This document shows, piece by piece, positions 2,251 to 38,074 of a DNA stretch of 64,000 nucleotides. The notes under the pieces are model-generated. The model did no database searches and was not told the origin of the DNA. It worked only from the letters and a program-made list of their open reading frames with translations. Each line of letters opens with the position of its first letter. Position 1 is the stretch's first letter. Made by a program: the position numbers and the translations under genes. Source of the DNA: a virus (Duplodnaviria; Caudoviricetes); IMG/VR virus record IMGVR_UViG_3300025502_001322, positions 64,001 through 128,000 of that record. One strand, written 5' to 3'.

Positions 2251-2322
2251 GCGGATATCGTATAATGGTTATTACGTGGCGTTGCCAACGCTACAATGTG
2301 AGTTCGATTCTCACTATCCGCT
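2251..2322 (+). tRNA. tRNA-Gly (GCC)
   Basis: Acceptor GCGGATA/TATCCGC, anticodon loop TTGCCAA, T arm GTGAG-TTCGATT-CTCAC; CCA not encoded. Confidence 0.9.
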
Positions 2323-2328
2323 CAAAAC

Positions 2329-2364
2329 GGAAGTAGGTGTTATACTGTATCGAGGGTTCGAATC
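2329..2364 (+). pseudogene. Possible remnant of the 3' half of a tRNA-Ser
   Basis: GGAAGTA...CTGTATCGAGGGTTCGAATC resembles the variable arm and T arm of tRNA-Ser(GCU); no acceptor stem or D arm. Confidence 0.3.
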
Positions 2365-2381
2365 ATTAGATAAATATTCAT

Positions 2382-3890
2382 ATGTATGACGCAGTTTTTC
2401 TCACCGACCATGATGATGTAACCGATGTCAGTATCATAACATTAGGTCCATATAAATGCGCACACGTCTTACGCAAACTAGGTTACAAATGTCTTGTTGT
2501 AACCAACACGGTGAATTTCACCGAAGAAGATTTTAAAGAATTATTTTTTTACGCTATAGGACATAATACAAAGTTAGTGGGGTTCAGCACAACTTTCCAA
2601 TGGGTCAGTGAAGATGGTCTTGCGTCAGGTGAAAAGAGCAGAGAAGAACTAATTCTCATTGAGATAAAGAAATATAACAAAGACACGAAGATTGTTTTAG
2701 GAGGATCAAAATCACACAGAGAGTGCGCTAATAAAAATGTAGATTTTGCTGTAGTAGGACTAGGTGAGACAAGTATAGTTCATATTATGAATCACCTAGA
2801 TCATGGGCAACCACTAAAAGACAGTTTTGTAAACATACATGGCGTCACTATTGTTGACAGTCAAAATAAAGAAACATATGATTTTATGTCTGATGTGATG
2901 CATTGGTTGCCGGAGGATGTAGTTAATTATAGAACACTACCTATTGAAATGGCCAGGGGGTGTATATTCAAATGTAAATTTTGTTTTCACAGAAATTTAG
3001 GCAAAAAGAAGTTAGAGTACGTTAAAAAGTTTGATGCTCTCAAACAAGAACTGCATCAAGCATACAAGGACTTTAATATCACTCATTATCAGATAGTAGA
3101 CGACACATTTAATGATGATGTAGACAAACTTGAACAGATTAGGAAAGTAACAGACACATTACCAGAACAACTCCGTCTCTGGTGTTATATGAGATTAGAC
3201 CTACTAGGCCGCAATCCACAAAGCATACCTATACTAAAGGATATGGGGGTTAGAGCTACAATATTCGGAATAGAGACCATGCATCCTAAAGCGGCTTCTG
3301 TTATAGGCAAAGGTGGTAGCAGACAGCGAGTAATAGACACTTTGCAGATGTTACGTACAGACTTCTCTGACTTATCAATGCATAGTGGTTTTATTGCGGG
3401 ACTGCCTTATGAACCTGTATCATCTTTAGAACGTACTTTAGAAGATTTAATATCTGGTAAAATACCGTTACATAGTTGGAACTGGATGGCATTTGTAATA
3501 CAAAAGTCAGGAATATATCAGGCAGACAGTACTTTTAACCTAGAGTATGAGAAATACGGCTATAGGAATAGAGGTTATGTTTGGGCAGATAAAAAGACAA
3601 TTAACCAAGTAGCCAACAATGCACTAGTTAACTGGGAAAGAGACGACTGGAATTTTGAAGATGCCTGGAAATGGACAACCCAAAAAGAATTTGAGAGTGT
3701 AAATTGTGGAACATACCACTACGACGGACTATTAGCCGTTGGCACACACACTTTCCCAGCCCCTAAGTTGGACTTTGACCTCATGCGTAAAACACTATAT
3801 CAGGATGTTGATTTTTCACTGATACGTCGTGCCAAAATGCAATTTATTCAAGACTATAAGAAAAAATTATTCAAATTAATAAAAACTTAA
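2382..3890 (+). CDS. Cobalamin-binding (class B-like) radical SAM protein 1
   Basis: N-terminal B12-binding-like domain (GPYKCAHVLR...VGFST...IVLGG...GLGE), then EMARGCIFKCKFC (CxxxCxxC), DDTFN, FGIET. Confidence 0.85.
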   Translation: MYDAVFLTDHDDVTDVSIITLGPYKCAHVLRKLGYKCLVVTNTVNFTEEDFKELFFYAIGHNTKLVGFSTTFQWVSEDGLASGEKSREELILIEIKKYNKDTKIVLGGSKSHRECANKNVDFAVVGLGETSIVHIMNHLDHGQPLKDSFVNIHGVTIVDSQNKETYDFMSDVMHWLPEDVVNYRTLPIEMARGCIFKCKFCFHRNLGKKKLEYVKKFDALKQELHQAYKDFNITHYQIVDDTFNDDVDKLEQIRKVTDTLPEQLRLWCYMRLDLLGRNPQSIPILKDMGVRATIFGIETMHPKAASVIGKGGSRQRVIDTLQMLRTDFSDLSMHSGFIAGLPYEPVSSLERTLEDLISGKIPLHSWNWMAFVIQKSGIYQADSTFNLEYEKYGYRNRGYVWADKKTINQVANNALVNWERDDWNFEDAWKWTTQKEFESVNCGTYHYDGLLAVGTHTFPAPKLDFDLMRKTLYQDVDFSLIRRAKMQFIQDYKKKLFKLIKT

Positions 3891-3987
3891 AGGTACGAAT
3901 GTAATTTTCTTAGTAATGAAAAAAGGTTAATAAATCTTGGTAAAAAGATTGCAAAAGAGTTCAATTTCAGTTATATTTTATGGTTAC

Positions 3988-4077
3988 GGAGAGTTGGCTG
4001 AGTGGCTAAAGGCAACGGTTTACTAAACCGTCATACGTGAATACGTGTCGTGGGTTCGAATCCCACACTCTCCGCCA
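3988..4077 (+). tRNA. tRNA-Ser with anticodon ACT (A34), long variable arm, CCA encoded
   Basis: Acceptor GGAGAGT/ACTCTCC, G73, stem ACGGT-[TTACTAA]-ACCGT, T arm GTGGG-TTCGAAT-CCCAC. Confidence 0.88.
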
Positions 4078-4083
4078 GACCAC

Positions 4084-4112
4084 TTGACAAGAAAGTTTTA
4101 CGGCACTACAAT
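4084..4112 (+). promoter_or_regulatory. Sigma70-type promoter
   Basis: TTGACA-17 nt-TACAAT upstream of the AdoMetDC gene. Confidence 0.65.
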
Positions 4113-4161
4113 AAATAACATCTATAATCTATTAGAAATAAATAACATCTATAATCTATTA
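4110..4161 (+). repeat. Perfect 25-nt direct repeat containing a late-promoter-like AATAAATA
   Basis: AATAAATAACATCTATAATCTATTA at 4110-4134 and 4137-4161. Confidence 0.9.
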
Positions 4162-4177: not shown

Positions 4178-4540
4178 ATGGCATACTGGGGATATCACGC
4201 AATGTTTGATTGCGCCGCATGTGACAAAGAACTTGTTATGAGCAAAGAAAATGTTTATAACTTTATTAAAGAATTAGTTCCAGCAATTGGTATGAAGGCA
4301 TTTGGTGAACCAATGATCGAGCATTTTGCTACGCATGCCCCTGATAAGGCAGGTCTTAGTTGTTGCCAAATGATTGAGACCAGTAATATTTGCGGACACT
4401 TTGTAGATAGCAATGGTGATGCTTATATTGATATTTTTTCGTGTAAGCCAGTTGATATTGGTGTAGCACAAGATGTTATTGAAAAGTTTTTTAAGCCTAC
4501 AAAAACTCGTGTTAATTTCTTAACACGTAGCGCAGGATAA
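4178..4540 (+). CDS. speD: S-adenosylmethionine decarboxylase (class 1b) family proenzyme, paralogue 1
   Basis: WGYH...IETSNICGHF (pyruvoyl-forming Ser region)...YIDIFSCK; 120 aa. Actual substrate uncertain. Confidence 0.85.
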   Translation: MAYWGYHAMFDCAACDKELVMSKENVYNFIKELVPAIGMKAFGEPMIEHFATHAPDKAGLSCCQMIETSNICGHFVDSNGDAYIDIFSCKPVDIGVAQDVIEKFFKPTKTRVNFLTRSAG

Positions 4541-4714: not shown

Positions 4715-4788
4715 GCCCGGTTAGTTAAATGGTATAACGATGGTTTTGTAAACCTTAATTGGCAGTTCAATTCTGTCACTGGGCACCA
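4715..4788 (+). tRNA. tRNA-Thr (TGT)
   Basis: Acceptor GCCCGGT/ACTGGGC, loop TTTGTAA, T arm with TTCAATT, ACCA end. Confidence 0.88.
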
Positions 4789-5271: not shown

Positions 5272-6945
5272 ATGTTTAATAATGACAAGCCCAACGTAAT
5301 ACTACTTTCTGATTTTGGCAATCAACTATACCTAGAGAAAACAATAGGCCCATATAAGATTGCACAACAGTTACGTAGTGCTGGCTTTGAAGTCGCAGTT
5401 GTTCATCACCTGATGACGTTTACTTTGACTGAAGTTAAACATATTCTTACACACCTAATATCAGACAAAACACTGTTTGTAGGTGTTAACAACTTCTTCT
5501 ACAAAAAAATTGTTAATTACGAAACAATAGAGTTACAGTACCCAGATCCTCATGCTATTATCCCGCACGGCAGTGAGTTTAACGCAGAGATAAAACAGCT
5601 GATACTAGAATGCAATCCCAATTGTAAACTAGTACTTGGTGGACCTAACGCCTGTGACATTCCTATATATAGTGACTATGATTATATAATACTGGGGTAT
5701 GCTGAAATGTCTATAATTAATCTTGCTAAACACCTTGAGAACCCAGTAATATATTTAGATAAAGCACGGGTAAGCAAACATGGTTTTACAGTTATCGACG
5801 ACAGCAAAGCACCCACATACGACTTTGTTAACCATGTTATGCACTACGAAGATCATGATGCAATTATTGATTATGAAACGCTGGTAGTTGAAATTGCACG
5901 TGGTTGTATCTTTCAGTGTAAGTTTTGTAGTTATCCACTTAATGGCAAAAAGAAACTGGACTTTATTAGAACTGAAGAAAGTTTATATCGAGAGTTCATG
6001 GACAATTATGAACGTTTTGGTATAACCAATTATACAATTAGTGATGATACCTTAAACGACAGCGTAGAGAAATGTGAAATGCTGGCTAACCTTACAGAAC
6101 GGTTACCGTTCCAGCCGATGTATAGTGCCGCAGTAAGATTAGATCTCATGACCAAACACAGGGACACGATTGACATGCTGTGGCAAGCAGGGTTGCGATC
6201 AGCGTTCTTTGGTATAGAGAGTATGCATAGTGAAGCGGCTAAGTTTGTGGGCAAGGGAGGTTCCAGAGAACGCCTAATAGAAACATTAAAATACATACGC
6301 AACACTTATGGCGGTGAGTTAAATCAGACAGGTGGGTTTATTTTAGGTTTGCCCAAAGAACCATTAAGCAGTATGCGTGAAACTATAGATTGGCTGTTGA
6401 GTGACGATAACCCACTAGATATATGGCAAATGTTTCCCTTAATGATCAGAGATATGAGTCTTGTACAAGGTGGAAACGGATTTGTTAGCGACTTTGATAA
6501 AAACTGGAAACTGTACGGATACGAAGACACCGGTATTAAAACTAGCAAATACTATATGCATGGTTATATTCCTTGGCGTAATGAATTTACAGATTTTAAT
6601 GAAGTCAGTGACATGGTAGACGATGCAGAGTCTACACGCCGTCTTCACAAGGACACGTCTAGTAATGCAGGTAGACACGTACTTTTACTAGCCAGTTTGG
6701 TTGCTAAAGAGAGTGCTATTATTGCTCAGACGGATTATCTTAACATCAACTGGGACCAACTAAACACCCTTAAACTAGAAAAGAGTCTTAAATACAAAGA
6801 CATGTTATTCAAACAGTGTAATATACCCAACATTGACAGGGCAGGCACATATAGAACTTTTACTGAGGTTATACAATCTAAAGAATACCGCAGAAATCAC
6901 TTACTACTTCCGACTCATCCTTGGTATTCAAACGTGTTTGTCTAA
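5272..6945 (+). CDS. Cobalamin-binding (class B-like) radical SAM protein 2
   Basis: GPYKIAQQLR...LVLGGP...GYAE; EIARGCIFQCKFC; DDTLN; FFGIES; clear paralogue of 2382-3890. Confidence 0.85.
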   Translation: MFNNDKPNVILLSDFGNQLYLEKTIGPYKIAQQLRSAGFEVAVVHHLMTFTLTEVKHILTHLISDKTLFVGVNNFFYKKIVNYETIELQYPDPHAIIPHGSEFNAEIKQLILECNPNCKLVLGGPNACDIPIYSDYDYIILGYAEMSIINLAKHLENPVIYLDKARVSKHGFTVIDDSKAPTYDFVNHVMHYEDHDAIIDYETLVVEIARGCIFQCKFCSYPLNGKKKLDFIRTEESLYREFMDNYERFGITNYTISDDTLNDSVEKCEMLANLTERLPFQPMYSAAVRLDLMTKHRDTIDMLWQAGLRSAFFGIESMHSEAAKFVGKGGSRERLIETLKYIRNTYGGELNQTGGFILGLPKEPLSSMRETIDWLLSDDNPLDIWQMFPLMIRDMSLVQGGNGFVSDFDKNWKLYGYEDTGIKTSKYYMHGYIPWRNEFTDFNEVSDMVDDAESTRRLHKDTSSNAGRHVLLLASLVAKESAIIAQTDYLNINWDQLNTLKLEKSLKYKDMLFKQCNIPNIDRAGTYRTFTEVIQSKEYRRNHLLLPTHPWYSNVFV

Positions 6946-9910: not shown

Positions 9911-10360
9911 ATGTTAAAGGCAACCCCAATAGTAAAAAACAAATTTTGGTTAGTAACAAGTAACGGTGAAAAAGTTGGTGCCGTAAAGTCCAGTGACAAA
10001 GGGCTAACGTATATACACGGCGACGAAGAAGAACGTTTTGCAACAGTTAAACTGTTAGAAGACAAGTACAATATTAAGTTTGAGTCATACAAATCAGATA
10101 ATGTTAAAGATTCAGAATACGAAGCATACGGAGCATACGGATATCCTACCGGTAATAACTACCCCCATAACCCCTTGTGGCATATACAACTAGGTATACC
10201 AGTGTTTACTAAAGAAGAAAAATCTCGTAGTTTTTACTGTGCGGGTTACTATCTGGTTAAAGAACGCAATAAAACTAAGTTGCGATTCTGTCCTAAAATT
10301 ATTCTATTAGAACGCAATGAGTTTGAAGGGCCTTTAAAGACCACATTAGGAAACTTTTAA
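9911..10360 (+). CDS. Hypothetical phage protein
   Basis: 149 aa ORF downstream of the promoter. Confidence 0.65.
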   Translation: MLKATPIVKNKFWLVTSNGEKVGAVKSSDKGLTYIHGDEEERFATVKLLEDKYNIKFESYKSDNVKDSEYEAYGAYGYPTGNNYPHNPLWHIQLGIPVFTKEEKSRSFYCAGYYLVKERNKTKLRFCPKIILLERNEFEGPLKTTLGNF

Positions 10361-12159
10361 AAGTCGTCTAACGAAGAATACGAACCTTCATGTTCATGAG
10401 TATCAGGAACATTGTGAGGTTGTAGTATTAACGCAAGTAGTGTGTCTCTTTTTTGTTCGTACGTCTGACCTGCGTATAGGCCTTCTGGGGGAATAGTACC
10501 CATGTCCACAAACATTGTTCTCTTCATAAAGTTCCACATATCCACAGTATACACACTGGTATAGAAATAAGCATCCAGTGTTTTTCCTAATACAATATCC
10601 TCGCATTTCTTAGATATAATACGCCAGACGTCGTTGGCGCCAGGTGTTTCGAACCACGACAACGCCAGATCCAGGAAGTCTGTTAACATAGTGCTATGGT
10701 ACCCTGAGTAAAATTGTTTTAGCCAGGTGGCCACTTTAAAGTTATCTATAGCAGTTTGTGTGCCTTTAATGTAACTTATACAGATTGGGAATTCCTCAAG
10801 GTCGTCTTCTGTTGGTGGCCTTGTTAGGATGTCACCAGGAACCTTTAAGTTTAGTACCTTAACTCCAATCTTTTCTCTGTATTCTTTGCTACCCACTGGG
10901 CTATTTGGTAGATACATCCAGAGATACCAACGTGTTCTAACATTACATTTCAGTACTTCGTACTGTGTGTCTAGCATACTTTGTGGTGTTTGGTTAGGCA
11001 TACCACTTATTAACTCTGTAACTAACTGCAAATCAGGAAATTTTGACTGTATGTTATGTATGTATTCTTTGTGTTTTTCCCAGGGTATCTCAGGTCTGTC
11101 AATCGCAGCCAATACGTCTTTATCGACATCTTGGAAACTTAGTGTCCAGGTTATTAGGTTTACATTTTCTGGATCACCATCAAACTTTTCAGTAAGCATA
11201 TAGTCAAATATTTCATACACTCTGTCTTTCTGCAACTTAGCCCAGGTTATCTCCCAAGGACAAATTACCTTAGGATATTTACGTCTCACTTTTGCCCAGA
11301 ACTTTGTTATATCCATGTCACGTGGGACTTGTCCAAAGTTTGCATCACAGAGCTTTAAGTATCTAATGTCTTCTTGTCCAAAGAACGCAAGATCTTTGTA
11401 AATTGGTATTAGACTCCAAAACGTAACTTTATTATGTAGCCCGCTGGTCCAGTCACAAAATGCGCAGTGGTACGGACACCCTCGGCTTGCCTCAAAATTA
11501 ACAATTGCAGTTAATCCTTGCTGTTTAGCCCAGGCAAACCATTCCCTAACAAGTTTTCTATTGTGCCACCATAACGGAATACCGAAGAATTTTTTATCCT
11601 TAAACGTAGCATGCTTTGCTTTAACTATCTTATCGCCTTCTATCCACAAAGCATTTTCAGTCTCTTCGATAACAGGTGTTTTGTCCTCAAAGTGGCAGTC
11701 TAAGATGTATTTTACAAACTTGTAGCCATCACCGTAACATGCGTATGTGATCCAATCTCTTTCATTAAGCCAAGTATAATCTTTGTGCTCTACTTCAGGA
11801 CCACCCACCATAACCTTAATATTAGGAAGTTTTTTCTGAACTGCTCGTACAATCTTTGCTAGACCTGGCTGAGTCCATATATACATACCCACAAACAACC
11901 AGTCTGATTGATTCTCTACAATTTGATCTACGTATGTGTTAACATAGTCTTCAGTAGGTAAAACTTGATGCCAGTCAACTTGTTTAGCAAGCTCAGGACT
12001 ATACAGATCGTAGTATGTCTTAAAATGCAACATACTGGCATTTATAAACCATGCTGGTCTAGGCTCAGTACTCATTTTATGCTTAGATACGACAGTATTA
12101 TGAAATATTGTCGTATCGAGGATACAGTTTATGAAACTAATCTTTAATTTTTTTGTCAT
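10357..12159 (-). CDS. Cobalamin-binding (class B-like) radical SAM protein 3
   Basis: FVGMYIW...VMVGGPE...YGDG; EASRGCPYHCAFCDW; DANFG; probable start MTKKLK at 12159. Confidence 0.85.
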   Translation of the reverse strand: MTKKLKISFINCILDTTIFHNTVVSKHKMSTEPRPAWFINASMLHFKTYYDLYSPELAKQVDWHQVLPTEDYVNTYVDQIVENQSDWLFVGMYIWTQPGLAKIVRAVQKKLPNIKVMVGGPEVEHKDYTWLNERDWITYACYGDGYKFVKYILDCHFEDKTPVIEETENALWIEGDKIVKAKHATFKDKKFFGIPLWWHNRKLVREWFAWAKQQGLTAIVNFEASRGCPYHCAFCDWTSGLHNKVTFWSLIPIYKDLAFFGQEDIRYLKLCDANFGQVPRDMDITKFWAKVRRKYPKVICPWEITWAKLQKDRVYEIFDYMLTEKFDGDPENVNLITWTLSFQDVDKDVLAAIDRPEIPWEKHKEYIHNIQSKFPDLQLVTELISGMPNQTPQSMLDTQYEVLKCNVRTRWYLWMYLPNSPVGSKEYREKIGVKVLNLKVPGDILTRPPTEDDLEEFPICISYIKGTQTAIDNFKVATWLKQFYSGYHSTMLTDFLDLALSWFETPGANDVWRIISKKCEDIVLGKTLDAYFYTSVYTVDMWNFMKRTMFVDMGTIPPEGLYAGQTYEQKRDTLLALILQPHNVPDTHEHEGSYSSLDDF

Positions 12160-12193
12160 ATAAGTAATTACAACTAAACGGAAGGTGTACAAG

Positions 12194-12201
12194 TATTTAT
12201 A
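12194..12201 (-). promoter_or_regulatory. Late promoter TATAAATA (minus strand)
   Basis: Exact TATAAATA on the minus strand about 35 nt upstream of 12159. Confidence 0.5.
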
Positions 12202-12413
12202 TGAACACTCATTATATAAACCAATTAAACAATAAAATACAGATTTTAAATTCTGGCCCAAATAAGCAGATTATATTAAGCAAGCAGGAAGCACAAGGAC
12301 TGCACAATGAGGTTTACCGGCTTCTGGCTAGGATAGCAGAGCTTGAGGGGATTCAAGAGCAACAGCCCACCGAGGAAGTTATTCGAGCAAATGTAGATGG
12401 TGGTGGTTGGTAA
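12201..12413 (+). CDS. Hypothetical protein
   Basis: 70 aa ORF. Confidence 0.55.
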   Translation: MNTHYINQLNNKIQILNSGPNKQIILSKQEAQGLHNEVYRLLARIAELEGIQEQQPTEEVIRANVDGGGW

Positions 12414-13372: not shown

Positions 13373-13460
13373 GCCCGGGTGGCGAAATTGGTAGACGCAC
13401 GGGACTTAAAATCCCGGGCCCCTTAAAGGCGTGCCGGTTCGATTCCGGCCCTGGGCACCA
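13373..13460 (+). tRNA. tRNA-Leu (TAA)
   Basis: Acceptor GCCCGGG/CCTGGGC, stem CGGGA-[CTTAAAA]-TCCCG, long variable arm, ACCA end. Confidence 0.93.
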
Positions 13461-25267: not shown

Positions 25268-26405
25268 GTATAACCTTAATAATCACTATGATAGCATATG
25301 GCAACTAACATTGCAACGTTTTAATAACCCACGAATTAATTACTTTATGCCTTTTGGTGCAACTGGGATAGAAGATATTGAGCAACGGTTTGTGAGCATA
25401 GGTGGAGTTGATTGTAGTATCTTTGCGTATGACCAAGAGCCTTTACTAAAGTTATTTAATCCCAGCGTATTCTTTAAAATACAAAGTGACAGTCACGCAG
25501 ACGGGCTAAAGTGGACTATACTACTGAACACAGAATTACATAGTGATCCCAAAGACGATATTCTAAAAAGATTTAGAATGATAGACTGTTATTATTTCCA
25601 CCACGCTCTTGCGGCGGCAGACTGGTACCGAGGAGGCAATTACTGGCATGAGATTAAACCGGTGGCTAGTAGAGTTATTAAAAATAAATTTATTACATTT
25701 AACAGACTAACCAGTAATGACAGGGTGTATAGATCTCTGTTAATTAACGAGTTATATAAACATGACATTCTCAGAGAAGGATTAGTAAGTTACAGTAAGC
25801 AATGCCCAATGGGAGGAGACTATAAAGTAGAAATAATGCATAGCAAACATATCCCAGACGGTTTAAAACTAGAGGCACTGTTTAATATAGGAAAAATAAA
25901 AGACGAGTTAAGGATAGATATACAGGGAGAAATTCCTAATCAAAGTTTTAATATTAGTTGTATTCCAGAATGCATGGAAACATTTTTATATGTTGTTACT
26001 GAAACTTGTTACTGGGGTCGTAAAAAACACCTAACTGAAAAAATATTTAAACCTATAGTCACAATGAACCCGTTCCTACTAGTCGGACCTGCTCATAACC
26101 TTGCATACCTTAAGAGTTATGGGTTTAAGAGTTTTGATAAGTGGATAGATGAATCTTATGATTTAATAGAAGACGATATTAAGCGTATGGAAGCTATAGG
26201 CAACGAACTAAAGCGTATAGCAAGTCTGGATTTTTACCAACTTAAACTAATCTACTATGATATGCAGGCAGTCTTAGAGCATAACAGAGACTGGTTCTAC
26301 AGTCAGGACTTTATTAAGTCAGTACACACCGAACTTATAGATAATTTTACTCAGGCATGTGACGAACTTCAACATCGCACTGCTTTAAAAAATCAACACC
26401 CTTAG
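25266..26405 (+). CDS. Putative glycosyltransferase (GT10-like ET..TEK motif)
   Basis: YVVTETCYWGRKKHLTEKIFKPIV...GFKSF...DESYD; the family call is by-eye inference. Confidence 0.5.
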   Translation: MYNLNNHYDSIWQLTLQRFNNPRINYFMPFGATGIEDIEQRFVSIGGVDCSIFAYDQEPLLKLFNPSVFFKIQSDSHADGLKWTILLNTELHSDPKDDILKRFRMIDCYYFHHALAAADWYRGGNYWHEIKPVASRVIKNKFITFNRLTSNDRVYRSLLINELYKHDILREGLVSYSKQCPMGGDYKVEIMHSKHIPDGLKLEALFNIGKIKDELRIDIQGEIPNQSFNISCIPECMETFLYVVTETCYWGRKKHLTEKIFKPIVTMNPFLLVGPAHNLAYLKSYGFKSFDKWIDESYDLIEDDIKRMEAIGNELKRIASLDFYQLKLIYYDMQAVLEHNRDWFYSQDFIKSVHTELIDNFTQACDELQHRTALKNQHP

Positions 26406-26841
26406 TGTCTCGATATTCCGTTGCATAGTATACTTCTTTTATACCAGCCTGGTATATACCTTTTGCACAATCTAAACAAGGACTGTGCGTGATAAACATT
26501 GTGGCACCTTCACCGCCTCCGTTAGATTTTGCTAACTTCAATAGCGAGTTCATTTCAGCATGAAGTACTTCGGGTTTACTTTTTAACTTAGAATATTTGC
26601 CATAAGCAAATGTCCAACCTGATTCTGTTAATGCAGTATAATCGTGCCATGGATTGTCTTCCATTTCCTCAATGGTGTTTTCGCAATTGTTATCCCAACC
26701 GCTCGGCATTCCATTGTAGCCACATCCTATTATCATGTTGTCTTTTACGACAATAGCGCCTACTTGTAGTCTACGTGCTGTACTACACTCCGCAAATGCA
26801 TGCGCAGTTTTCATATAGGCTTTTGTATGTTTTTCTTTCAT
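26347..26841 (-). CDS. dCMP deaminase
   Basis: VGAIVVKD, GYNG, LHAEMN, SPCLDCAK zinc motifs. Confidence 0.93.
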   Translation of the reverse strand: MKEKHTKAYMKTAHAFAECSTARRLQVGAIVVKDNMIIGCGYNGMPSGWDNNCENTIEEMEDNPWHDYTALTESGWTFAYGKYSKLKSKPEVLHAEMNSLLKLAKSNGGGEGATMFITHSPCLDCAKGIYQAGIKEVYYATEYRDTKGVDFLKQCDVEVRHMPE

Positions 26842-29521: not shown

Positions 29522-30299
29522 TGAATGTGTCCTTTATAAGTTCTGCGGCAGCCGTGTGTGCTGATTCTCTTGGGTGTGTTGTATACATAGGGTATTTATT
29601 TTCCACAGCCCATTGGTAAAAACCTCTGGGAGCAACTGTTTCTCCCTGATGTGTGCCTTTGGGAAACCAAAAAAACTTCTCCCAGTCTATACTGTTATAA
29701 ACTGCGGCAATACTGGGGTCTCTACCTTGTATATTATGATTATCCATAATACAGTTATCAGCGGCAGTAAACATATAAGGTATTGACATTTGTTTGAGGT
29801 ACATTTGTAGGTATAGTATCTCTTTAAGAGTAGTGTATGTTTTCCAATACATGTCAGCACCTACATGTTTAAAGTACGACTTAGCAAAGTCTGAAACTCC
29901 TGTGAGTCTCGCCCTCTCATTATGCTTGTTCTGCAATGTCTTTTGTTTGTGATCAACTTCAAAAAAGTAAACGCTGGGGTCAAAATCATCATCTTCAGCA
30001 ACCCAAGGACTAATGTTATACCAGTGACCACTGCGTTGACCAGTGTCGTAGTTAAATTTAAATTCGTACCTAGCAGGAAAAGTCCACTGTACTATTACAC
30101 CACATCTACCTATCTGAGATATTTCATTAATGACATTACGAGCAATACCTTGGTTACTCCAGCCGGGGCCAGCAACTAATCTATAGTCATGGTCTTGACT
30201 TAACAGTGCGGGCCATGTAGATGCACTACCGGTTTTAACGTCCCAGTCTTGTAATTCGACTCCGTGTATAAAACTACAACCGCCTGCTACTATAATCAT
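29487..30299 (-). CDS. SGNH-like protein, paralogue 2
   Basis: AGGCSFIHG, GWSNQGI, VQWTF, THP. Confidence 0.7.
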   Translation of the reverse strand: MIIVAGGCSFIHGVELQDWDVKTGSASTWPALLSQDHDYRLVAGPGWSNQGIARNVINEISQIGRCGVIVQWTFPARYEFKFNYDTGQRSGHWYNISPWVAEDDDFDPSVYFFEVDHKQKTLQNKHNERARLTGVSDFAKSYFKHVGADMYWKTYTTLKEILYLQMYLKQMSIPYMFTAADNCIMDNHNIQGRDPSIAAVYNSIDWEKFFWFPKGTHQGETVAPRGFYQWAVENKYPMYTTHPRESAHTAAAELIKDTFNDMVTQYSKQD

Positions 30300-31428
30300 A
30301 TCCGGGTTTCATCATTTCAATTTGATTGTGTTTGTAATTGTGGTCTGACCAACAGTAATCGAACTCTCCCACAACATTATCTATTTCTATTCTGTATATG
30401 TCCAAGTGCTTACTCAGGTGTTGCCACACTGTTTGTGGATGTGCTGTTCCAAATGCTGAACGTAAGTCTATCTCACCTAACTCCAGATAACCTAAACTCA
30501 ATGAACTGTCTTCAGTATTCATGTTGTTGTCACCAAGCCACTTGTCAAACTCTGTCATTTGTTTATTATGCCAATCAAAGTCTCCTCCTTTGACAATGTC
30601 TACACCCCACTCTACATCGAACTCACCTGACCAGTACTGCAAATGTGTTATGGCGTCACACACTGTGTCTGTAAGTTTAGGTGCATGTTCGTCTCTAAAC
30701 ACTTCCATAAGTGTTTTACCAATCTGTGTCCAGTGCATGTAGACTCCACCAAATTTCCTATCGTATCCGTTAGTTAAAAAGCCTTTGCGATGTTCGTCTT
30801 GTAACTGGAATCTATTTGCGTGTAAGAACGTTGTTATCTGACTAGGACGCACAAACTGTGGTGTTGTTGCTAGTTTACGTTGACTTAGTACTAGACTTTC
30901 TAGTTCATGACAGATATTGTTTAACTGTCTGATTGCATACTTTGTGTCGTAGTCTGCTAGTATGTAATACTCACTTAAGTGTTCTACTGTGCCTTGTAAG
31001 ACTTCAAAATGATTGTGTAACTTGTTCATTACTTCATGCTTAATACCTAATCCCAAGTTAGCATCATTATATCCTACAGGATACTCGTCTCCAAATCGTA
31101 TTACGTCAGGTGTAAAGTAATCTTCAATTACATAACTATCTAAGCCCATGTGTTGCCACGTGCGACTGGCATTAAACATGTTGATCTGAAACACTACTTG
31201 ATTTAGTTCGTTACACAGATAGGTTAAGTTGCGTGGACTATGTGGGAACCCCATAAAGCAAAAGTTTTTTTCTAATAACTTTTTGTTACGCAACTCATGC
31301 GTCAGTGCTGATCGCCAGTCTCTTGCAAGTCTAGAATCGTTTAAGATAATGTCATAGTCTAGTGTCTGAGTCTTCTGAAACGGATTACGCAGTACTACTT
31401 TAACTTTCGATTGATTGCCACCACTCAT
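30274..31428 (-). CDS. Hypothetical protein at the end of the radical SAM array
   Basis: 384 aa ORF overlapping both neighbours; no motif recognised. Confidence 0.7.
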   Translation of the reverse strand: MSGGNQSKVKVVLRNPFQKTQTLDYDIILNDSRLARDWRSALTHELRNKKLLEKNFCFMGFPHSPRNLTYLCNELNQVVFQINMFNASRTWQHMGLDSYVIEDYFTPDVIRFGDEYPVGYNDANLGLGIKHEVMNKLHNHFEVLQGTVEHLSEYYILADYDTKYAIRQLNNICHELESLVLSQRKLATTPQFVRPSQITTFLHANRFQLQDEHRKGFLTNGYDRKFGGVYMHWTQIGKTLMEVFRDEHAPKLTDTVCDAITHLQYWSGEFDVEWGVDIVKGGDFDWHNKQMTEFDKWLGDNNMNTEDSSLSLGYLELGEIDLRSAFGTAHPQTVWQHLSKHLDIYRIEIDNVVGEFDYCWSDHNYKHNQIEMMKPGYDYSSRRL

Positions 31429-32719
31429 ATACGTCTGGTCTCGCTTTTAGAATTTCGTCTATTGTTATTGAATCGTTACGTATTTCTTCTAATTGTAACA
31501 TACGATGCTTGCCTTTTGCAAGACCTTGTTGGTATTCTTCTGGCCACTGCTCTGCAAACGTTGGTCTTGTTTTTAGTTGAGTTAAGACATCACGTAATGC
31601 TCCGCTGGTTTTTGGCACTATTTCATCAACCCAATCATCTAGTAGTTTTCTTGGCAGGGCAAGCGGGCTCATTATAATGTCAGGTGAAAAACTAAAGATA
31701 ACTTTAGCCAATATGCCTACCCCGTTCTCTTGTGCGAACTTCACAATGTTTTCAACTTCAAACATGCCCAGTAACGTGAGAGTAAAGTCTACACGTAGTT
31801 GTCTACTATGTTGTGTTATCTGTTTTACTTGCCTAAAGTTTTCCTGCCATTCAGCCCAATTTAAACCTGTACGTATATATTCACCTATTTTGCCTGTGCC
31901 ATCTATACTAGCACATATCTGCCAGTCACGCAACTCACTCAATATGTCGCATAAGTTAGCGCCTTTGTATTTTATTCTACTTAGGTTTGTATTATAACGT
32001 GCGTATACCTTGGCGCCGTCGCCTTGTTCTACAATCTGCTTCATGTACCGCCAGTGTTGCTCGTACATTAAAGGCTCACCACCCACCCAGTATATTTCTT
32101 CTACTCTACTTTCGTCTACTGCTTTGGCAAACTCACGTTCTATCTGGTCGTCTTGGTATTTAGATATCTGTTCACGTATGTCTGGCTTCATCCAGTTGTT
32201 TTTAGGATTGGACCAATCTATCTGATCATGTTTCTTTTGTTCTGATTCCCAGCTAGAACTTAACATGTCGCCACAAGTACGACACTTAAAGTTACATAAG
32301 TTGCTAAACCTATAATCAAAACTAACAGGCTTTAATGCTGTAGAGCCATCATAACCGGTCATCCAGGCTACATTCTGAAACTTATCTTTAAACAAATTCC
32401 AAAAGTAGTCCTTGTATACGTCTGTGTTTAGTAACTTGTTATTGCATACGTCACACTCGGGAAGAGTTTCGCCATTCATCATGCGTCTGCGTACACTACG
32501 CATATGCTCGCCATTCCACCAGTCATCTAATGATTGTGGATTGTACTTGCCTGTGCCAGACTTAGTGTCTATATACTGTGTAAAGTTTTGCGCTGGCTCT
32601 CTACTGGCACAGCACATACGTCTTTCTGTCTGTGGACTTAGATATGTGTGTACCCAAGGCGCCATACAAAAACTTGGACTAGGTGAGGCTAGATATTTTA
32701 ATGGAAACACTTTAATCAT
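31400..32719 (-). CDS. Radical SAM protein with N-terminal Cys cluster (SPASM/twitch-like), type A
   Basis: CMAPW...MCC...CDVC; NLCNFKCRTC; VGGEP; YNTN; SIDG. Confidence 0.88.
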   Translation of the reverse strand: MIKVFPLKYLASPSPSFCMAPWVHTYLSPQTERRMCCASREPAQNFTQYIDTKSGTGKYNPQSLDDWWNGEHMRSVRRRMMNGETLPECDVCNNKLLNTDVYKDYFWNLFKDKFQNVAWMTGYDGSTALKPVSFDYRFSNLCNFKCRTCGDMLSSSWESEQKKHDQIDWSNPKNNWMKPDIREQISKYQDDQIEREFAKAVDESRVEEIYWVGGEPLMYEQHWRYMKQIVEQGDGAKVYARYNTNLSRIKYKGANLCDILSELRDWQICASIDGTGKIGEYIRTGLNWAEWQENFRQVKQITQHSRQLRVDFTLTLLGMFEVENIVKFAQENGVGILAKVIFSFSPDIIMSPLALPRKLLDDWVDEIVPKTSGALRDVLTQLKTRPTFAEQWPEEYQQGLAKGKHRMLQLEEIRNDSITIDEILKARPDVYEWWQSIES

Positions 32720-32727
32720 AATCGTAT

Positions 32728-34098
32728 TTACACAATCAAGTAAGGGAACAAACTTCTCCAGTCAGTCGCTCGACGTCTGTCAAGTTCGTCTAGATAAATG
32801 TGTAAATTTTCTATCTGTTCAGAATCGTGTTGGCTAACTGTCTTTAATTGTTTTTCTAACCCCCGTAGTCTAACAAAAACCTCACGTTGTTCTATTGTGC
32901 CTTGCTTTAGTGTATCGTATATACGCTTAAAGTCTTGTTGCCACATACTGTAAGAAAAAATCTTGGGGTGTAGGTATTGTTCTGGCCCAATGTAAAATTC
33001 AAAATAGTGTCCGATGTGTTTGTTGTCGTTATAGCGATTAACAACTTCGATCAGTTCGGGCATGGTTTTAATGGTCATGTTTGTTATTGTCTGATTAATG
33101 TTTAAGTTAAGCCAATCAGACTGTTGACTTGCCCATGCTAATCGCTGTTCAAATAGTTCTAAGTCCAGGCCACGCCTGACAAATTGTGCTGGCTCTCCCC
33201 AACAGTCTATGCTTGCTGTTAGGTCAAACCCTTTAATCGGTAGATGTTTTATTCTCTCGATGTAATTAATCCAGTGTTTTTCTGGCGCATTCATGTTACT
33301 GAAAATACCCAATCGTAGTTCACTGTTAGGCTTGCGCTCCAGTATATCTAAAATGTCAGTCATCAGTCGATGTTGTATAAACGTCTCTCCACCTAATAGA
33401 TGTAGTCTGCGTAAGTGTTGAACATTATCTGTTAACCAATCTAAAAATTTAGCATATAACGCTGTGTTATCCTGCTTGTTTGGTAGTGTATTTTTTAACC
33501 AAACACCCTTTTGTTTAAACTCACCGTATCTATTATTCTCTTGTTCTATCTGACTGCTTAGGTTACTGTTGCAGTATATGCAACTAAAGTTACAGGTGTT
33601 ATCTGCAAATATTTCCTGTATACGTTGTGTTATATACAAACTCCTGGTGTCAGTATCTAGTTCCAACGGTGTTAATCCTGGTATTAGGTTATTGTGATGT
33701 CTATCGCTGTGTCCACCTGCCGCTTCTATATCTCTACAATATTCACACCCATTACCAGGCCATTTGCCTTCAAGCATCTGCTCACGTGCCAGAATTTTAT
33801 TTGGTCCGTTGTGTAAGTTAAAATCATCTACACTTATATTGTCCCAGCTTGCACGGTGGCAACTGCTTGTCCTCGCTTCATTAAGCCATAGTGTGTTCCA
33901 GGTCCACTTGCTCTGACATGAGGTTGCTGTCTTAATAGGAAAGTATTTGCCCTGCTTGGAAAACTGCCGTACAAAGTCTGTAATCTCTTGGTCTATGCTA
34001 TCTATGCCGGTGGTTGCTCCAGCAACAAAGTCGACCCATTGGGGCCAGTTTTCGCCTTGGTGTTCTAGGTAGTCTGCTTGATCTATATTAGATCTCAT
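32728..34098 (-). CDS. Radical SAM protein, type B
   Basis: CQSKW...SCHR...CEYC; NTCNFSCIYC; LGGET. Confidence 0.85.
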   Translation of the reverse strand: MRSNIDQADYLEHQGENWPQWVDFVAGATTGIDSIDQEITDFVRQFSKQGKYFPIKTATSCQSKWTWNTLWLNEARTSSCHRASWDNISVDDFNLHNGPNKILAREQMLEGKWPGNGCEYCRDIEAAGGHSDRHHNNLIPGLTPLELDTDTRSLYITQRIQEIFADNTCNFSCIYCNSNLSSQIEQENNRYGEFKQKGVWLKNTLPNKQDNTALYAKFLDWLTDNVQHLRRLHLLGGETFIQHRLMTDILDILERKPNSELRLGIFSNMNAPEKHWINYIERIKHLPIKGFDLTASIDCWGEPAQFVRRGLDLELFEQRLAWASQQSDWLNLNINQTITNMTIKTMPELIEVVNRYNDNKHIGHYFEFYIGPEQYLHPKIFSYSMWQQDFKRIYDTLKQGTIEQREVFVRLRGLEKQLKTVSQHDSEQIENLHIYLDELDRRRATDWRSLFPYLIV

Positions 34099-35299
34099 AA
34101 CCCATGGCCCGTGCTATCTCTGGATGGGTATCTGTAAATTTCTCTTTACGCCACTTGTCTGCTAGATACATACGTTCATCAAACATAGGTAACTTATCGC
34201 CTGAGCCGTTTTCAATAAAACGTATTACGTTATCTACTTCAGTCTGATACTCTGGCTTCCAGTCTATGCTTTGTAATTTTACTTTAACCAGTGCTTGTGC
34301 GGCAGGTGTCATGTTCTTAATACACATCTCTGCAGGATCATGTAACATGTTAAAGTAGACAGTACCAAAGCCCTGCTTGTCTGCCCAGTCTAAAAGTTCG
34401 TTTATGTAGTAGACGTTTTGTATATTAATAGTAAAACAGAGTTGTGTAGTAATGTTTGTTACTTCTTTCTGCACTCCATGCACACGTTTAATAATCTCTT
34501 CTGCACGATTCCACTTAGCGCCGTAACGTTCGTATTCAAAACGCTTGCCAACATTGTCTATACTAAATGCAATATCTACTCTACCAAACTCTCGCCATAT
34601 GTCTACAAACTCCTCGTCCCAGGTTGTGGCGTTTGTATTGTAATGTATATCTATATGCTTGCTGTCGCCTGTTCGAATAGCAGTTTTAAGTAAGTTAAAA
34701 TGTTCTTTAATTAAGAAAGGTTCGCCGCCAGTAAATTCAAAGTACTTGATATTAGGCAACAGTGTTTCTAAGTTCTGCCAAAAGACCGGTGACTTACGAG
34801 GCCACTGACCTTCCCGTAGCATTGTGCGTGCTAGGTGATTTTTATTGTCGTGATCTTCTGTAACGTAGTCTATTTCTTCCTGGGCCCATTTGCTTGACGA
34901 CCATGAGCCACATATACGACACTTTAAGTTACAGATGTTACCCAGTTTTAAATCTATAAACCACAGTTGGTCGGGGTTGTCATTCTCCCAGTCAATTTGC
35001 TTATACAAGTCTCGAAGTCTAACCTCACTGTTAATACGTTTACTGTCTCTGCCAGCATCTTCTTCTGCCCAACAGCGTTTGCAAGTTGCAGGCTTCTCTC
35101 CACGTCTAAACTGTTGCCGTAAGTCTTGCATGTACTCACTTGCATAAATCTCTTCCAGTGTGTGTTCAGACATTTTGTACTTTGTGCCATCTGGTTTGAT
35201 TATCTCATCATCTGCAAGACAACATGGTCGAGCAGTACCGACTGGTGATGTTTCAATGCTTATCCAGGGCAAGCCACAAATTGTGTTAGGCAGAGACAT
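34088..35299 (-). CDS. Radical SAM protein, type A
   Basis: CGLPW...PCC...CKRCW; NICNLKCRIC; TGGEP; YNTN. Confidence 0.88.
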   Translation of the reverse strand: MSLPNTICGLPWISIETSPVGTARPCCLADDEIIKPDGTKYKMSEHTLEEIYASEYMQDLRQQFRRGEKPATCKRCWAEEDAGRDSKRINSEVRLRDLYKQIDWENDNPDQLWFIDLKLGNICNLKCRICGSWSSSKWAQEEIDYVTEDHDNKNHLARTMLREGQWPRKSPVFWQNLETLLPNIKYFEFTGGEPFLIKEHFNLLKTAIRTGDSKHIDIHYNTNATTWDEEFVDIWREFGRVDIAFSIDNVGKRFEYERYGAKWNRAEEIIKRVHGVQKEVTNITTQLCFTINIQNVYYINELLDWADKQGFGTVYFNMLHDPAEMCIKNMTPAAQALVKVKLQSIDWKPEYQTEVDNVIRFIENGSGDKLPMFDERMYLADKWRKEKFTDTHPEIARAMGYEI

Positions 35300-36734
35300 T
35301 TAGGTCCTTGAACTCAGGGAATGTTTCCCAGAAGTTTTCATTACGTATGCCATCTAGTTTTGCTATTTGTTTCTCAAACTCAGGCCATTGTTTGTAATTG
35401 TCCTGTGCATTTATTAAACTTAAAATACTCTTGTAACCGTTAGTAGCACGACGTAATCTATCCTTAGGGTCTAACCATTCTATGTGTTTTTCATAGGCAG
35501 GCGTAATTACTCGGTCCTTAAACTCTTGTGGGAATATGTCTGGTCTGTACCAATCAGGTGACTGACATATGTTAATGTTCCAGTCCTTTGCTGTAATTAG
35601 TCCTAGGTTTGTCCATTCTTTGTGAAAATCTAGTACATGTAAAACATTCATGGCACTAATAGTTGAACTCACATAAAAATCTACGTGAGGTACTTTAGCC
35701 ATCATCTGAAATCTATTTTGAATAGCCTGTTCCCAGTCAGTTCCTTTACGTATAAGTTCTGCTTGTGGCCCCATTGCATCTAAACTGGCACCTACACTTA
35801 CATTTTTAAAATGTTTCCAGTAGTCATATACGTGCTTGTCTTTAAAACGCATTTCACTAAAGTTAGTGTTGTACTGAATACGCACATCTGTTTTACCATG
35901 CTCTATTAGTTTCTCTAATAGGTAGTAGTGTTCCTTCATTATTAGCGGTTCACCACCTGCAAAGTATACCTGCTCTAAATGTGGAATATGTGGTTCCATT
36001 TGTTCTAGCATGGAAGACTCATCACCAGCAGTGTACTCTACACGTGCCATATCTCTGCCTAATACGTCTGGCTTTTTACCATATAACTTTACATGGTCAT
36101 TATACCAGTTACTGCTAAAGATAGGACCACAACTTCTACAGCTAAAGTTACACAGGTTACTGAACCTGACATCCCAATAGCGTATCTTAAATTCTTCGTG
36201 ATGTCCATCTGACGCAGTTTGTTTTATTTCATGTACATTGTGTCCGTAGGTTTTATTAGCATCGTTGCGCATACTGAATGCTCCGTGTTGTTCACGTTCG
36301 TAACAATTTTTGCATTCTTTACAGGGTTTGTCATCTAACATGTTACGGCGCATCTGCTTGTATGGATCTTGATTCCATACTTCTGCCATTGTGTTCTTAC
36401 GTAGATCACCAACTGGGCTCCAGTAATCACTTAAACAGCACGGATAAGCTCTACCATCCGGAAAAGCATGCATGTGTACCCATGGCAACATGCAGAAGTT
36501 TTTACTTTCAGTTAGTTTGTATTTTTGATCATCGTCTAGCTGGTCCCATTTTATGTGTGTTGGTTTGAGCGAATTATAATCGTAACCAATGTTAATTTTA
36601 GCAGATTGCTTCCCGAACTCCACAAGTTTAAGTTTTATCGCCGGGTCGGTTATTTTATCTGCAACATAATCCTCATACGATGGCCAGTCTGATCCGGCAA
36701 ACTGGTCATATGCTTCTTTGTGTAGTTTGTTCAT
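35286..36734 (-). CDS. Radical SAM protein, type A, with N-terminal G-x-DWP module
   Basis: CMLPW...PCC...CKNCY; NLCNFSCRSC; AGGEP; start at an ATGA overlap. Confidence 0.88.
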   Translation of the reverse strand: MNKLHKEAYDQFAGSDWPSYEDYVADKITDPAIKLKLVEFGKQSAKINIGYDYNSLKPTHIKWDQLDDDQKYKLTESKNFCMLPWVHMHAFPDGRAYPCCLSDYWSPVGDLRKNTMAEVWNQDPYKQMRRNMLDDKPCKECKNCYEREQHGAFSMRNDANKTYGHNVHEIKQTASDGHHEEFKIRYWDVRFSNLCNFSCRSCGPIFSSNWYNDHVKLYGKKPDVLGRDMARVEYTAGDESSMLEQMEPHIPHLEQVYFAGGEPLIMKEHYYLLEKLIEHGKTDVRIQYNTNFSEMRFKDKHVYDYWKHFKNVSVGASLDAMGPQAELIRKGTDWEQAIQNRFQMMAKVPHVDFYVSSTISAMNVLHVLDFHKEWTNLGLITAKDWNINICQSPDWYRPDIFPQEFKDRVITPAYEKHIEWLDPKDRLRRATNGYKSILSLINAQDNYKQWPEFEKQIAKLDGIRNENFWETFPEFKDLNVSA

Positions 36735-38074
36735 AATGTGTTGTACCAATCTGCTAGTTCTGGAAAAGTTGCTGTCAAGTTCTTTCCTCTACGTTTGTCG
36801 TACTGCTCGTGAAACTTTTTAAAGTCGTTGTGTAGTTTGGGCATGTCGAATGTGTCTGAATGTGGTGTCTCCACTACATCCAAGTAATCAATTAATCTTA
36901 TGATGTGGTTAATCTCATGTTCGTGTAACAACTGCCCAATTGGTCTTGCCATCTGATAATCCAACCATGTGCGTAAACGTTCTTTGTGCTTAATTCTAAT
37001 TTCTTTAGGGAACACTAACGGACTTTGGAAACTAGGGAAGCGTAAGATATTAAGCGTAAAACTTACAGCATGTTTACCGTGTTTTGACTTCCATCCAACT
37101 AATAAATCTAAAAAGTCAGTTAGACTTTCCAAACACAATGCATTAATTGTACACATTACATGTAACCCACGTAATTTATTTCTATGTACTTGTAGTATTT
37201 TGTTTATGTTATCACACCATAGTTCCCATTCCAGCCCATCACGTATATACTCTGCATGACCGTTAACACTTTCATTGCTGGTGTACACATCAATTGGTTG
37301 GTCTACACTGTCAAACAACCTACCTACATCTATATCCTTACCTAAGTTACTGTTAATAGCCAGACGTGTTTTGCTTTTACCTTTGTTTTCTTTAAACCAA
37401 TCAATAAGTTTCCAAGTGTAGCCACTCATCAAAGGTTCGCCACCTGTAATGCGTAGTTCGTCTAGTGTTCGGTGTAGGTCTGATTCCCACCACTTGAAGA
37501 ACGCCTCAACATAAGGATTTTCCTCGCCGAATTTATACAACTGCGCACTGTCATGAGCATGGGTAAAATGATTGCGCCCATCAGAAACGAGCCCAGTATA
37601 ACTTCCGTTTGATTTAATGTCCTTAACCCATGTACTACTAAAAGCAGGGTTGCAATAACTGCAAGCAAATTGACAAGTCCTATCGAAACTGATTTCCAAA
37701 GTTCGTAAGTCCACGTCTCTTGTTGCATCTGATTGATATGCATCGTCTAATTCCTTTATAGTGTATATTTTACTTTTATAGACACGGTCAGAAATATTAT
37801 CACGGTTGATATCTTCAATCTTCCAGCAGTACTCACAACCTGGCGGACGTTCTCCTGCCTGCATCTGCGCTCTGTCTTTTTTCTTTTCAGGCGTGTTGTG
37901 TATTGCTTTGGGATTACGCTTAACTTCTTCAATATCAACTTTGTGTGCTGGTGGGTGATGACAACTGGTACTCATGCCACTGCCTAACCATATGGTGGCG
38001 TTATACCATTTCGCTCCACAAAAGCTCGCTGACTTTGTGTCTAACATTTGTTTCTTAAATTCTAAATCATTCAA
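36731..38074 (-). CDS. Radical SAM protein, type B
   Basis: CGAKW...SCHHP...CEYCW; RTCQFACSYC; TGGEP. Confidence 0.88.
   Translation of the reverse strand: MNDLEFKKQMLDTKSASFCGAKWYNATIWLGSGMSTSCHHPPAHKVDIEEVKRNPKAIHNTPEKKKDRAQMQAGERPPGCEYCWKIEDINRDNISDRVYKSKIYTIKELDDAYQSDATRDVDLRTLEISFDRTCQFACSYCNPAFSSTWVKDIKSNGSYTGLVSDGRNHFTHAHDSAQLYKFGEENPYVEAFFKWWESDLHRTLDELRITGGEPLMSGYTWKLIDWFKENKGKSKTRLAINSNLGKDIDVGRLFDSVDQPIDVYTSNESVNGHAEYIRDGLEWELWCDNINKILQVHRNKLRGLHVMCTINALCLESLTDFLDLLVGWKSKHGKHAVSFTLNILRFPSFQSPLVFPKEIRIKHKERLRTWLDYQMARPIGQLLHEHEINHIIRLIDYLDVVETPHSDTFDMPKLHNDFKKFHEQYDKRRGKNLTATFPELADWYNTL

Follow-up and report, generated by a model that had tools for sequence, protein, structure and literature searches.

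A phage gene for a serine tRNA with the anticodon ACU raises the question of which codons an encoded A34 can read in the codon box that serine shares with arginine, and how such a gene comes to be kept. Ehrlich et al. 2021 described ANN anticodons as universally missing from split boxes, isoleucine excepted. They named the Ser-Arg box among those where A34 is universally missing, and wrote that the genes absent from bacteria are absent from phage tRNAs as well (PMC8007984). The gene lies in a stretch of 64,000 nucleotides, here called the window, which comprises bases 64001-128000 of an IMG/VR record of 289,070 bp with 39% GC and an estimated completeness of about 80%. The record is that of a jumbo phage, which encodes structural proteins, a terminase, a SAM decarboxylase, and numerous radical SAM proteins. 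For one ATPase, the nearest relatives in culture are from Pseudomonas PA5oct-like, Sinorhizobium, Salicola, and Agrobacterium jumbo phages. Naming a host from these relatives was rejected because identities of 36-49% are too distant.

The tRNA-Ser(ACU) gene and its encoded A34

ARAGORN calls the gene as tRNA-Ser(act), with the anticodon starting at tRNA position 35 (Table 1). Rfam RF00005 matches it over the full model (1-71) with 55.4 bits and an E-value of 3.2e-9, above the gathering score of 29 that marks a tRNA. All stems are perfectly paired, both in the sequence and in the ARAGORN fold. The acceptor stem has 7 bp with 0 mismatches and begins with G1-C72, G2-C71, and A3-T70; the anticodon stem has 5 bp (ACGGT/ACCGT), the D stem contains C11-G24, and the T loop reads TTCGAAT. 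The variable arm of 18 nt, with a stem of 6 bp and a loop of 4 nt, is that of a type II tRNA, and the gene ends in G73 and an encoded CCA. In E. coli, the identity set of tRNA-Ser consists of the G73 discriminator, G1-C72, G2-C71, A3-U70, and C11-G24, and the window gene carries the whole of it, as read from the sequence and the ARAGORN drawing. By every sequence feature examined, the gene can be assigned to tRNA-Ser. The initial annotation, which had described a paired Ser-type tRNA with the loop TT-ACT-AA, was right in both description and coordinates.

The promoter-like site upstream of the gene is weak, as such sites are not enriched relative to shuffled sequences. Beyond the gene is a perfect 25-nt direct repeat on the plus strand (window 4110-4134 and 4137-4161) with TATAAT within each copy. 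The repeat lies directly downstream of a TTGACA-17-TACAAT site (4084-4112) and upstream of the SAM decarboxylase start; its copies may be stacked promoters or an operator.

Table 1. Features of the window that bear on the tRNA-Ser(ACU) gene, in window coordinates
Feature	Position	Strand	Basis or remark
tRNA-Gly(GCC)	2251..2323	+	One mismatch to the ortholog of the sister phage; synteny anchor
Decayed tRNA-Ser(GCU) remnant	2329..2363	+	Pairwise alignment to the intact sister gene L060:5895-5987
Promoter-like site TTGCAA-17-TATATT	3949..3977	+	Ends 10 nt upstream of tRNA-Ser(ACU); 9/12 matches
tRNA-Ser(ACU), type II	3988..4077	+	ARAGORN, Rfam RF00005, sequence; encoded CCA at 4075-4077
Anticodon ACT	4022..4024	+	A34 is window 4022; loop 4020-4026 is TTACTAA
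tRNA-Thr(UGU)	4715..4788	+	tRNA-Thr of the sister phage has the same specificity and a different sequence
tRNA-Leu(UAA)	13373..13460	+	Last of the four tRNAs in the 289-kb record
CDA-fold deaminase	26347-26841	-	dCMP deaminase: PDB 4p9c, E 1.8e-36

The identity of the letter at window 4022 has support from outside the record. DNA runs from 2017-2018 that contain the stretch number 18, all with the label salt lake metagenome, and RNA runs contain only 6-9% of its sampled words. Logan contigs of four runs (X16, X17, X18, and X1) span position 4022, and no letter differs. These are separately assembled contigs rather than raw reads, with depths of 3.6-29 that are low in three runs. X16, X17, and X18 are not flagged as the source, and the samples of the four runs may share one campaign. 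A34 at 4022 is not a sequencing error, and the gene is real and intact. The initial annotation had called for confirmation of A4022 and allowed for reads that show G; the contigs of the four salt-lake runs agree on A, at the level of contigs. That the letter is an error of sequencing or assembly, or that the gene is dead, is extremely improbable: although position 4022 was checked on contigs and three runs are at low depth, four separate assemblies gave the identical sequence, every stem is paired without fault, and homologous ACU genes are found in cultured, completely sequenced phages.

Another contig of these salt-lake runs, 7349 nt long and with a depth of 74 in X1, has only the T arm in common with the window, with a loose end before window 4034, and bears another Ser-type TT-ACT-AA loop. 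It points to a second, more abundant ACU-bearing genome in the same lake.

Codon usage and the sister phage

The whole 289-kb record contains four tRNAs, Gly(GCC), Ser(ACU), Thr(UGU), and Leu(UAA). Neither a Ser(GCU) gene nor any second tRNA-Ser was found in it at about 80% completeness, and one may be present in the part that the record lacks. Among 281 long ORFs, serine is most often encoded by AGT, with 43% of Ser and an AGT/AGY share of 0.74. ACA makes up 50% of Thr, TTA 36% of Leu, and GGT with GGC 68% of Gly, so all four phage tRNAs match heavily used codons. The same ORFs use AGA as the top codon for arginine, with 38% of Arg and 15.6 occurrences per 1000 codons. At AGY the T/C ratio is 0.74, a usual value for all Y-ending pairs of the genome except the four NAY boxes, which are read by queuosine tRNAs and have a ratio near 0.5.

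Two contigs, the only close relatives found, represent a sister phage that has 78% nucleotide identity to the window over 42 kb and the same gene order; the radical SAM proteins of the two are 86% identical. In the sister phage, tRNA-Gly(GCC) is followed after 4 nt by an intact tRNA-Ser(GCU), then by the radical SAM gene, tRNA-Thr(UGU), and five more tRNAs. The corresponding order in the window is tRNA-Gly(GCC), a 35-nt remnant of tRNA-Ser(GCU), the radical SAM gene, and, 97 nt past its stop codon, tRNA-Ser(ACU). The 58 nt between tRNA-Gly and the radical SAM gene of the window align to the tRNA-Ser(GCU) of the sister phage with deletions of 43 and 11 nt. What is retained is the 5' GGAAG and a part of the variable arm and T arm, while the 43 nt of the D and anticodon arms and the 11 nt of the 3' T stem and acceptor are gone. 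A partial tRNA of this kind can be nothing but a relic, so the common ancestor had tRNA-Ser(GCU) at this place, and the gene decayed in the window lineage. The window segment with tRNA-Ser(ACU) and SAM decarboxylase has no counterpart in the sister phage. ACU has thus taken the place of GCU in the window lineage.

Codon usage in the sister phage is the same, with an AGT/AGY share of 0.744 vs 0.737 in the window phage and AGT at 46% vs 43% of Ser. The replacement thus took place at constant codon usage, which did not force the switch. A within-lineage replacement of GCU by ACU, documented at constant codon usage, is new, and it supplies the comparison by which faster decoding of AGU through A34 can be told from mere tolerance of A34.

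Near the same locus (L314:3816-9228), the sister phage has at least 8 tRNAs: Gly, Ser(GCU), Thr, Glu, Asp, Leu(UAA), Arg(UCU), and Cys. Its tRNA-Thr(UGU) and that of the window share an anticodon and are unrelated in sequence. The tRNA genes of this lineage turn over fast, with specificities kept.

Eight consecutive minus-strand ORFs of 384-487 aa occupy window 30274-40658, with radical SAM PHROG matches in three of the four tested, and three more radical SAM or B12-binding genes are near the tRNAs, at 2382-3890, 5272-6945 (+), and 10357-12261 (-). The SAM decarboxylase gene (4178-4540) adjoins radical SAM and B12-binding genes. This radical SAM complement is unusually large for a phage. At the far end of the window, an open frame of at least 2781 aa (55654-63999, minus strand) runs past the window end and adjoins a 1014-aa ORF with virion-structural PHROG matches.

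The ACU class in phages and Patescibacteria

The best match of the gene in a cultured phage is a tRNA-Ser of Xanthomonas phage XaC1, which is 81% identical, shares the acceptor stem and T arm, and also has the anticodon ACU. The same anticodon is found in Erwinia phage Hallingskeid, Salmonella phage Munch, and Rhizobium phages RHph_TM30 and RHph_TM2_3B; occurrence in related phages, proposed as a check by the initial annotation, is thereby borne out. These cultured-phage genes share 75-85% identity with the window gene, and four further phages of about 340-360 kb give the same match as Munch. GenBank notes of the Rhizobium phages already read 'tRNA-Ser(act)'. The XaC1 paper counts eight tRNAs and does not remark on the ACU anticodon.

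A scan pattern that combined a Ser-type D arm with TACTAA and a long variable arm found at least 119 stretches in IMG/VR and at least 120 in species-representative genomes. ARAGORN calls tRNA-Ser(act) in 79 of the 80 IMG/VR loci fetched and in 78 of the 80 cellular loci fetched. Among the matches listed, about 60 of the 80 cellular loci are from named Patescibacteria/CPR, some on contigs of 180-840 kb. IMG/VR, the cellular genomes, the window, and the five cultured-phage genes together yield at least 163 ARAGORN tRNA-Ser(act) genes with at least 152 distinct sequences. Loops of the class read TTACTAA or CTACTAA, and the window gene has this YU-ACU-AA loop on a Ser body. It is a member of a widespread but unremarked class. 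The initial annotation made the correct point that A34 beyond tRNA-Arg(ACG) is unusual; its treatment of the gene as a singular oddity does not agree with a class of this extent.

Phage loci almost always carry one anticodon or the other: 78 have ACU only, 1 has both, and 51, which were chosen by their GCU-type arm, have GCU only. In the cellular loci, a GCU gene is near the ACU gene in 47 of 78. Exclusion in phages and pairing in cells are expected if ACU cannot read AGC. A pattern search of the five complete cultured ACU phages found no GCU gene, a result that is weak for Hallingskeid and Munch, as the ACT control pattern recovered 3 of the 5.

Relations within the class were approached through parts of the gene. 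The window anticodon arm with any anticodon (NNN) matches 47 GCT genes and no other ACT gene in viral_contigs, and a scan of the same set with the window gene's own variable arm gave no match, so there is no close copy with another anticodon in it. By these matches, the anticodon arm can be classed as GCU type, which says nothing on origin. In a pattern-biased sample of 236 masked AGY tRNA-Ser sequences, the nearest neighbours of the window gene mix ACU and GCU at 80-82% identity. A claim from a tree about single versus multiple origin was dropped because a 90-nt gene cannot resolve it.

About 20 of the 80 cellular ACU loci are not from named Patescibacteria. They include Gammaproteobacteria MAGs, Polynucleobacter, Planctomycetota, and Verrucomicrobiales (L184, L185, L186, L204, L214, L217, L247, and others) and may represent prophages, or contigs of phages that were binned into MAGs. 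Two IMG/VR GVMAG contigs, labelled giant-virus MAGs (L087 and L089), also have an ARAGORN tRNA-Ser(act). Another A34 tRNA is present in phages on three IMG/VR contigs, where a Ser-type tRNA with the same anticodon arm has the anticodon AGA in the loop TT-AGA-AA (L007:2690-2711, minus strand; L013:839-860, minus strand; L052:2015-2036, plus strand). ACU-bearing loci also contain tRNA-Leu(aag) twice, tRNA-Thr(agt) once, and tRNA-Arg(acg) four times.

Proposed decoding by A34 and its alternatives

The explanation favoured here, with moderate confidence, is that the gene encodes a functional tRNA-Ser dedicated to AGU, in which A34 stays unmodified and which most likely reads AGU only. The intactness of the gene, its agreement between runs, its recurrence in other genomes, the replacement, and the codon usage are observed here, whereas we infer that the tRNA is expressed and charged, lacks inosine, and reads AGU alone. 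Seryl-tRNA synthetase ignores the anticodon and recognises the long variable arm, the acceptor stem, and G73. Charging by the host enzyme would be expected, since the Ser identity set is present. The charged tRNA would decode AGU through a Watson-Crick A34:U3 pair and would read AGC, AGA, and AGG little or not at all. It would supply the most used serine codon of the phage, with AGC falling to the host tRNA-Ser(GCU). In the window lineage it succeeded the phage tRNA-Ser(GCU) of the ancestor, whose gene subsequently decayed. An orthogonal tRNA with the ACU anticodon behaved in this manner in E. coli: AGU was read at 9.4% and AGG at 0.36%, AGC and AGA were below detection, and position 34 of the cDNA was only T, meaning no inosine (PMC11066159).

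The proposal of the initial annotation that the anticodon is an adaptation to AGU holds in part. Its suggested comparison of AGT with AGC gives the AGT/AGY share of 0.74 noted above, and AGT is indeed the leading serine codon, but the sister phage keeps GCU, and the ACU carriers among phage loci have no AGT excess that is independent of GC. ACU-bearing phage loci are more AT-rich than GCU-bearing ones, with a median GC of 0.374 vs 0.423, and their higher AGT share follows from the lower GC. Once GC is accounted for, no AGT excess was found in the ACU carriers among phage loci (coefficient 0.03, with a GCT set that is biased and partly redundant). As the sister phage manages with GCU at the same codon usage, an advantage of A34 over G34 is not obligatory.

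The success of the sister phage with GCU and the lack of a GC-independent AGT excess would also suit a tolerated, nearly neutral change of G34 to A, after which AGU is still read, the host GCU covers AGC, and nothing is gained. The identity of the anticodon arm to 47 GCT genes and the mixture of ACU and GCU among the nearest neighbours are likewise in its favour. Such a variant is nevertheless unlikely: at least 152 distinct intact ACU sequences were found, several related cultured phages included, and many Patescibacteria keep ACU as a second gene. Five Rhizobium phage hits were fetched or matched at the same place, and in the window lineage it is the GCU copy that decayed and the ACU gene that stayed intact. 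Retention beside GCU in Patescibacteria also points to a role in decoding rather than to escape from a host anticodon nuclease, in which tRNA-Ser(GCU) would be cut and the A34 copy would resist. Changes in the anticodon loop can protect phage tRNAs from host tRNA nucleases (PMC10264068), and the idea has been cited for jumbo phages too (PMC11273794). The escape changes of van den Berg et al. are outside the anticodon, however, and tRNA-Ser(gct) is named there as not targeted (PMC10264068). The literature searched contained no nuclease specific for Ser(GCU), and the escape that the initial annotation had suggested is very unlikely.

Conversion of A34 to inosine, whether through the TadA of the host or through a phage enzyme that escaped recognition, would let the tRNA read both AGU and AGC, and AGA at some cost. 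Genomically encoded A34 nearly always becomes I34 in known systems (PMC11066159; PMC8007984), and a single tRNA covering both AGY codons would fit the loss of the GCU gene. The modification is improbable all the same on the evidence of the loop and of the codons that it would open. E. coli TadA modified only ANG anticodons, ACU being left as A by the cDNA result, and changes at positions 32, 37, or 38 blocked the enzyme (PMC11066159). The window loop, U32 U33 A34 C35 U36 A37 A38, departs at two positions, U32 and U36, from the Arg2 loop, C32 U33 A34 C35 G36 A37 A38. Judged by its loop, the window tRNA would not be a TadA-type substrate, under a rule that is that of E. coli and may not be the host's. 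No TadA-like gene was found in the phage genome, where the sole CDA-fold deaminase is a dCMP deaminase that scores 27.7 bits against the TadA model, with a cut-off of 150. I34:A3 pairing would place serine at many arginine sites, given the rank of AGA among the Arg codons, and the GCU gene beside ACU in Patescibacteria would be redundant if ACU became ICU. The misreading of AGA through I34 that the initial annotation had raised is unlikely.

The reading with an unmodified A34 dedicated to AGU has a wider form. It is marginally favoured that phages and ultra-small Patescibacteria routinely use unmodified A34 in a split box, which would make the 'universally missing' rule wrong, and that the window lineage represents a switch in progress, with GCU decaying after the takeover by ACU. 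A conserved natural tRNA-Ser(ACU) contradicts the 'missing A34' picture (PMC8007984). Work on unmodified A34 has relied on engineered tRNAs, and natural examples were thought almost absent (PMC11066159). Full-text searches of one literature collection brought up no paper that describes a natural tRNA-Ser(ACU) from a phage or a bacterium, nor did broader searches of the same collection on A34 tRNAs in Patescibacteria and in phages; Morgado and Vicente 2019 do not go into anticodons in their main text. If the favoured explanation is true, the window lineage and the cultured ACU phages are a natural system for the costs and gains of A34 relative to G34. The presence of ACU in cultured Salmonella, Erwinia, Xanthomonas, and Rhizobium phages makes the avoidance of A34 directly testable.

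Among known systems, the standard reader of AGY in bacteria and phages, tRNA-Ser(GCU), shares the type II body, G73, the GGA start of the acceptor stem, and the codon box with the window tRNA. It differs in having G34, with which it reads AGC and AGU, whereas the A34 of the window tRNA is expected to read AGU only. The cultured-phage tRNA-Ser(ACU) genes (XaC1, Hallingskeid, Munch, RHph_TM30, and RHph_TM2_3B) have ACU on a Ser-type body, as the window gene does, but belong to other phages and hosts and are mentioned solely in annotation lines, for example as 'tRNA-Ser(act)'. The tRNA of Schmitt, Tittle and Fisk 2024 has the same ACU anticodon, keeps A34, and reads AGU; it differs in being an engineered, Tyr-charged M. 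jannaschii body with C32 and not a natural Ser tRNA (PMC11066159). The tRNA-Arg(ACG)/TadA system shares an encoded A34 followed by C35, but tRNA-Arg(ACG) has G36 and C32 where the window tRNA has U36 and U32, and E. coli TadA took ANG only (PMC11066159). Mycoplasma tRNA-Thr(AGU), a natural bacterial tRNA, likewise keeps an unmodified A34 (cited in PMC11066159). It serves a four-codon box, where it reads ACU, ACC, and ACG and loose reading is harmless, whereas the Ser/Arg box is split, so that loose reading by the window tRNA would give missense.
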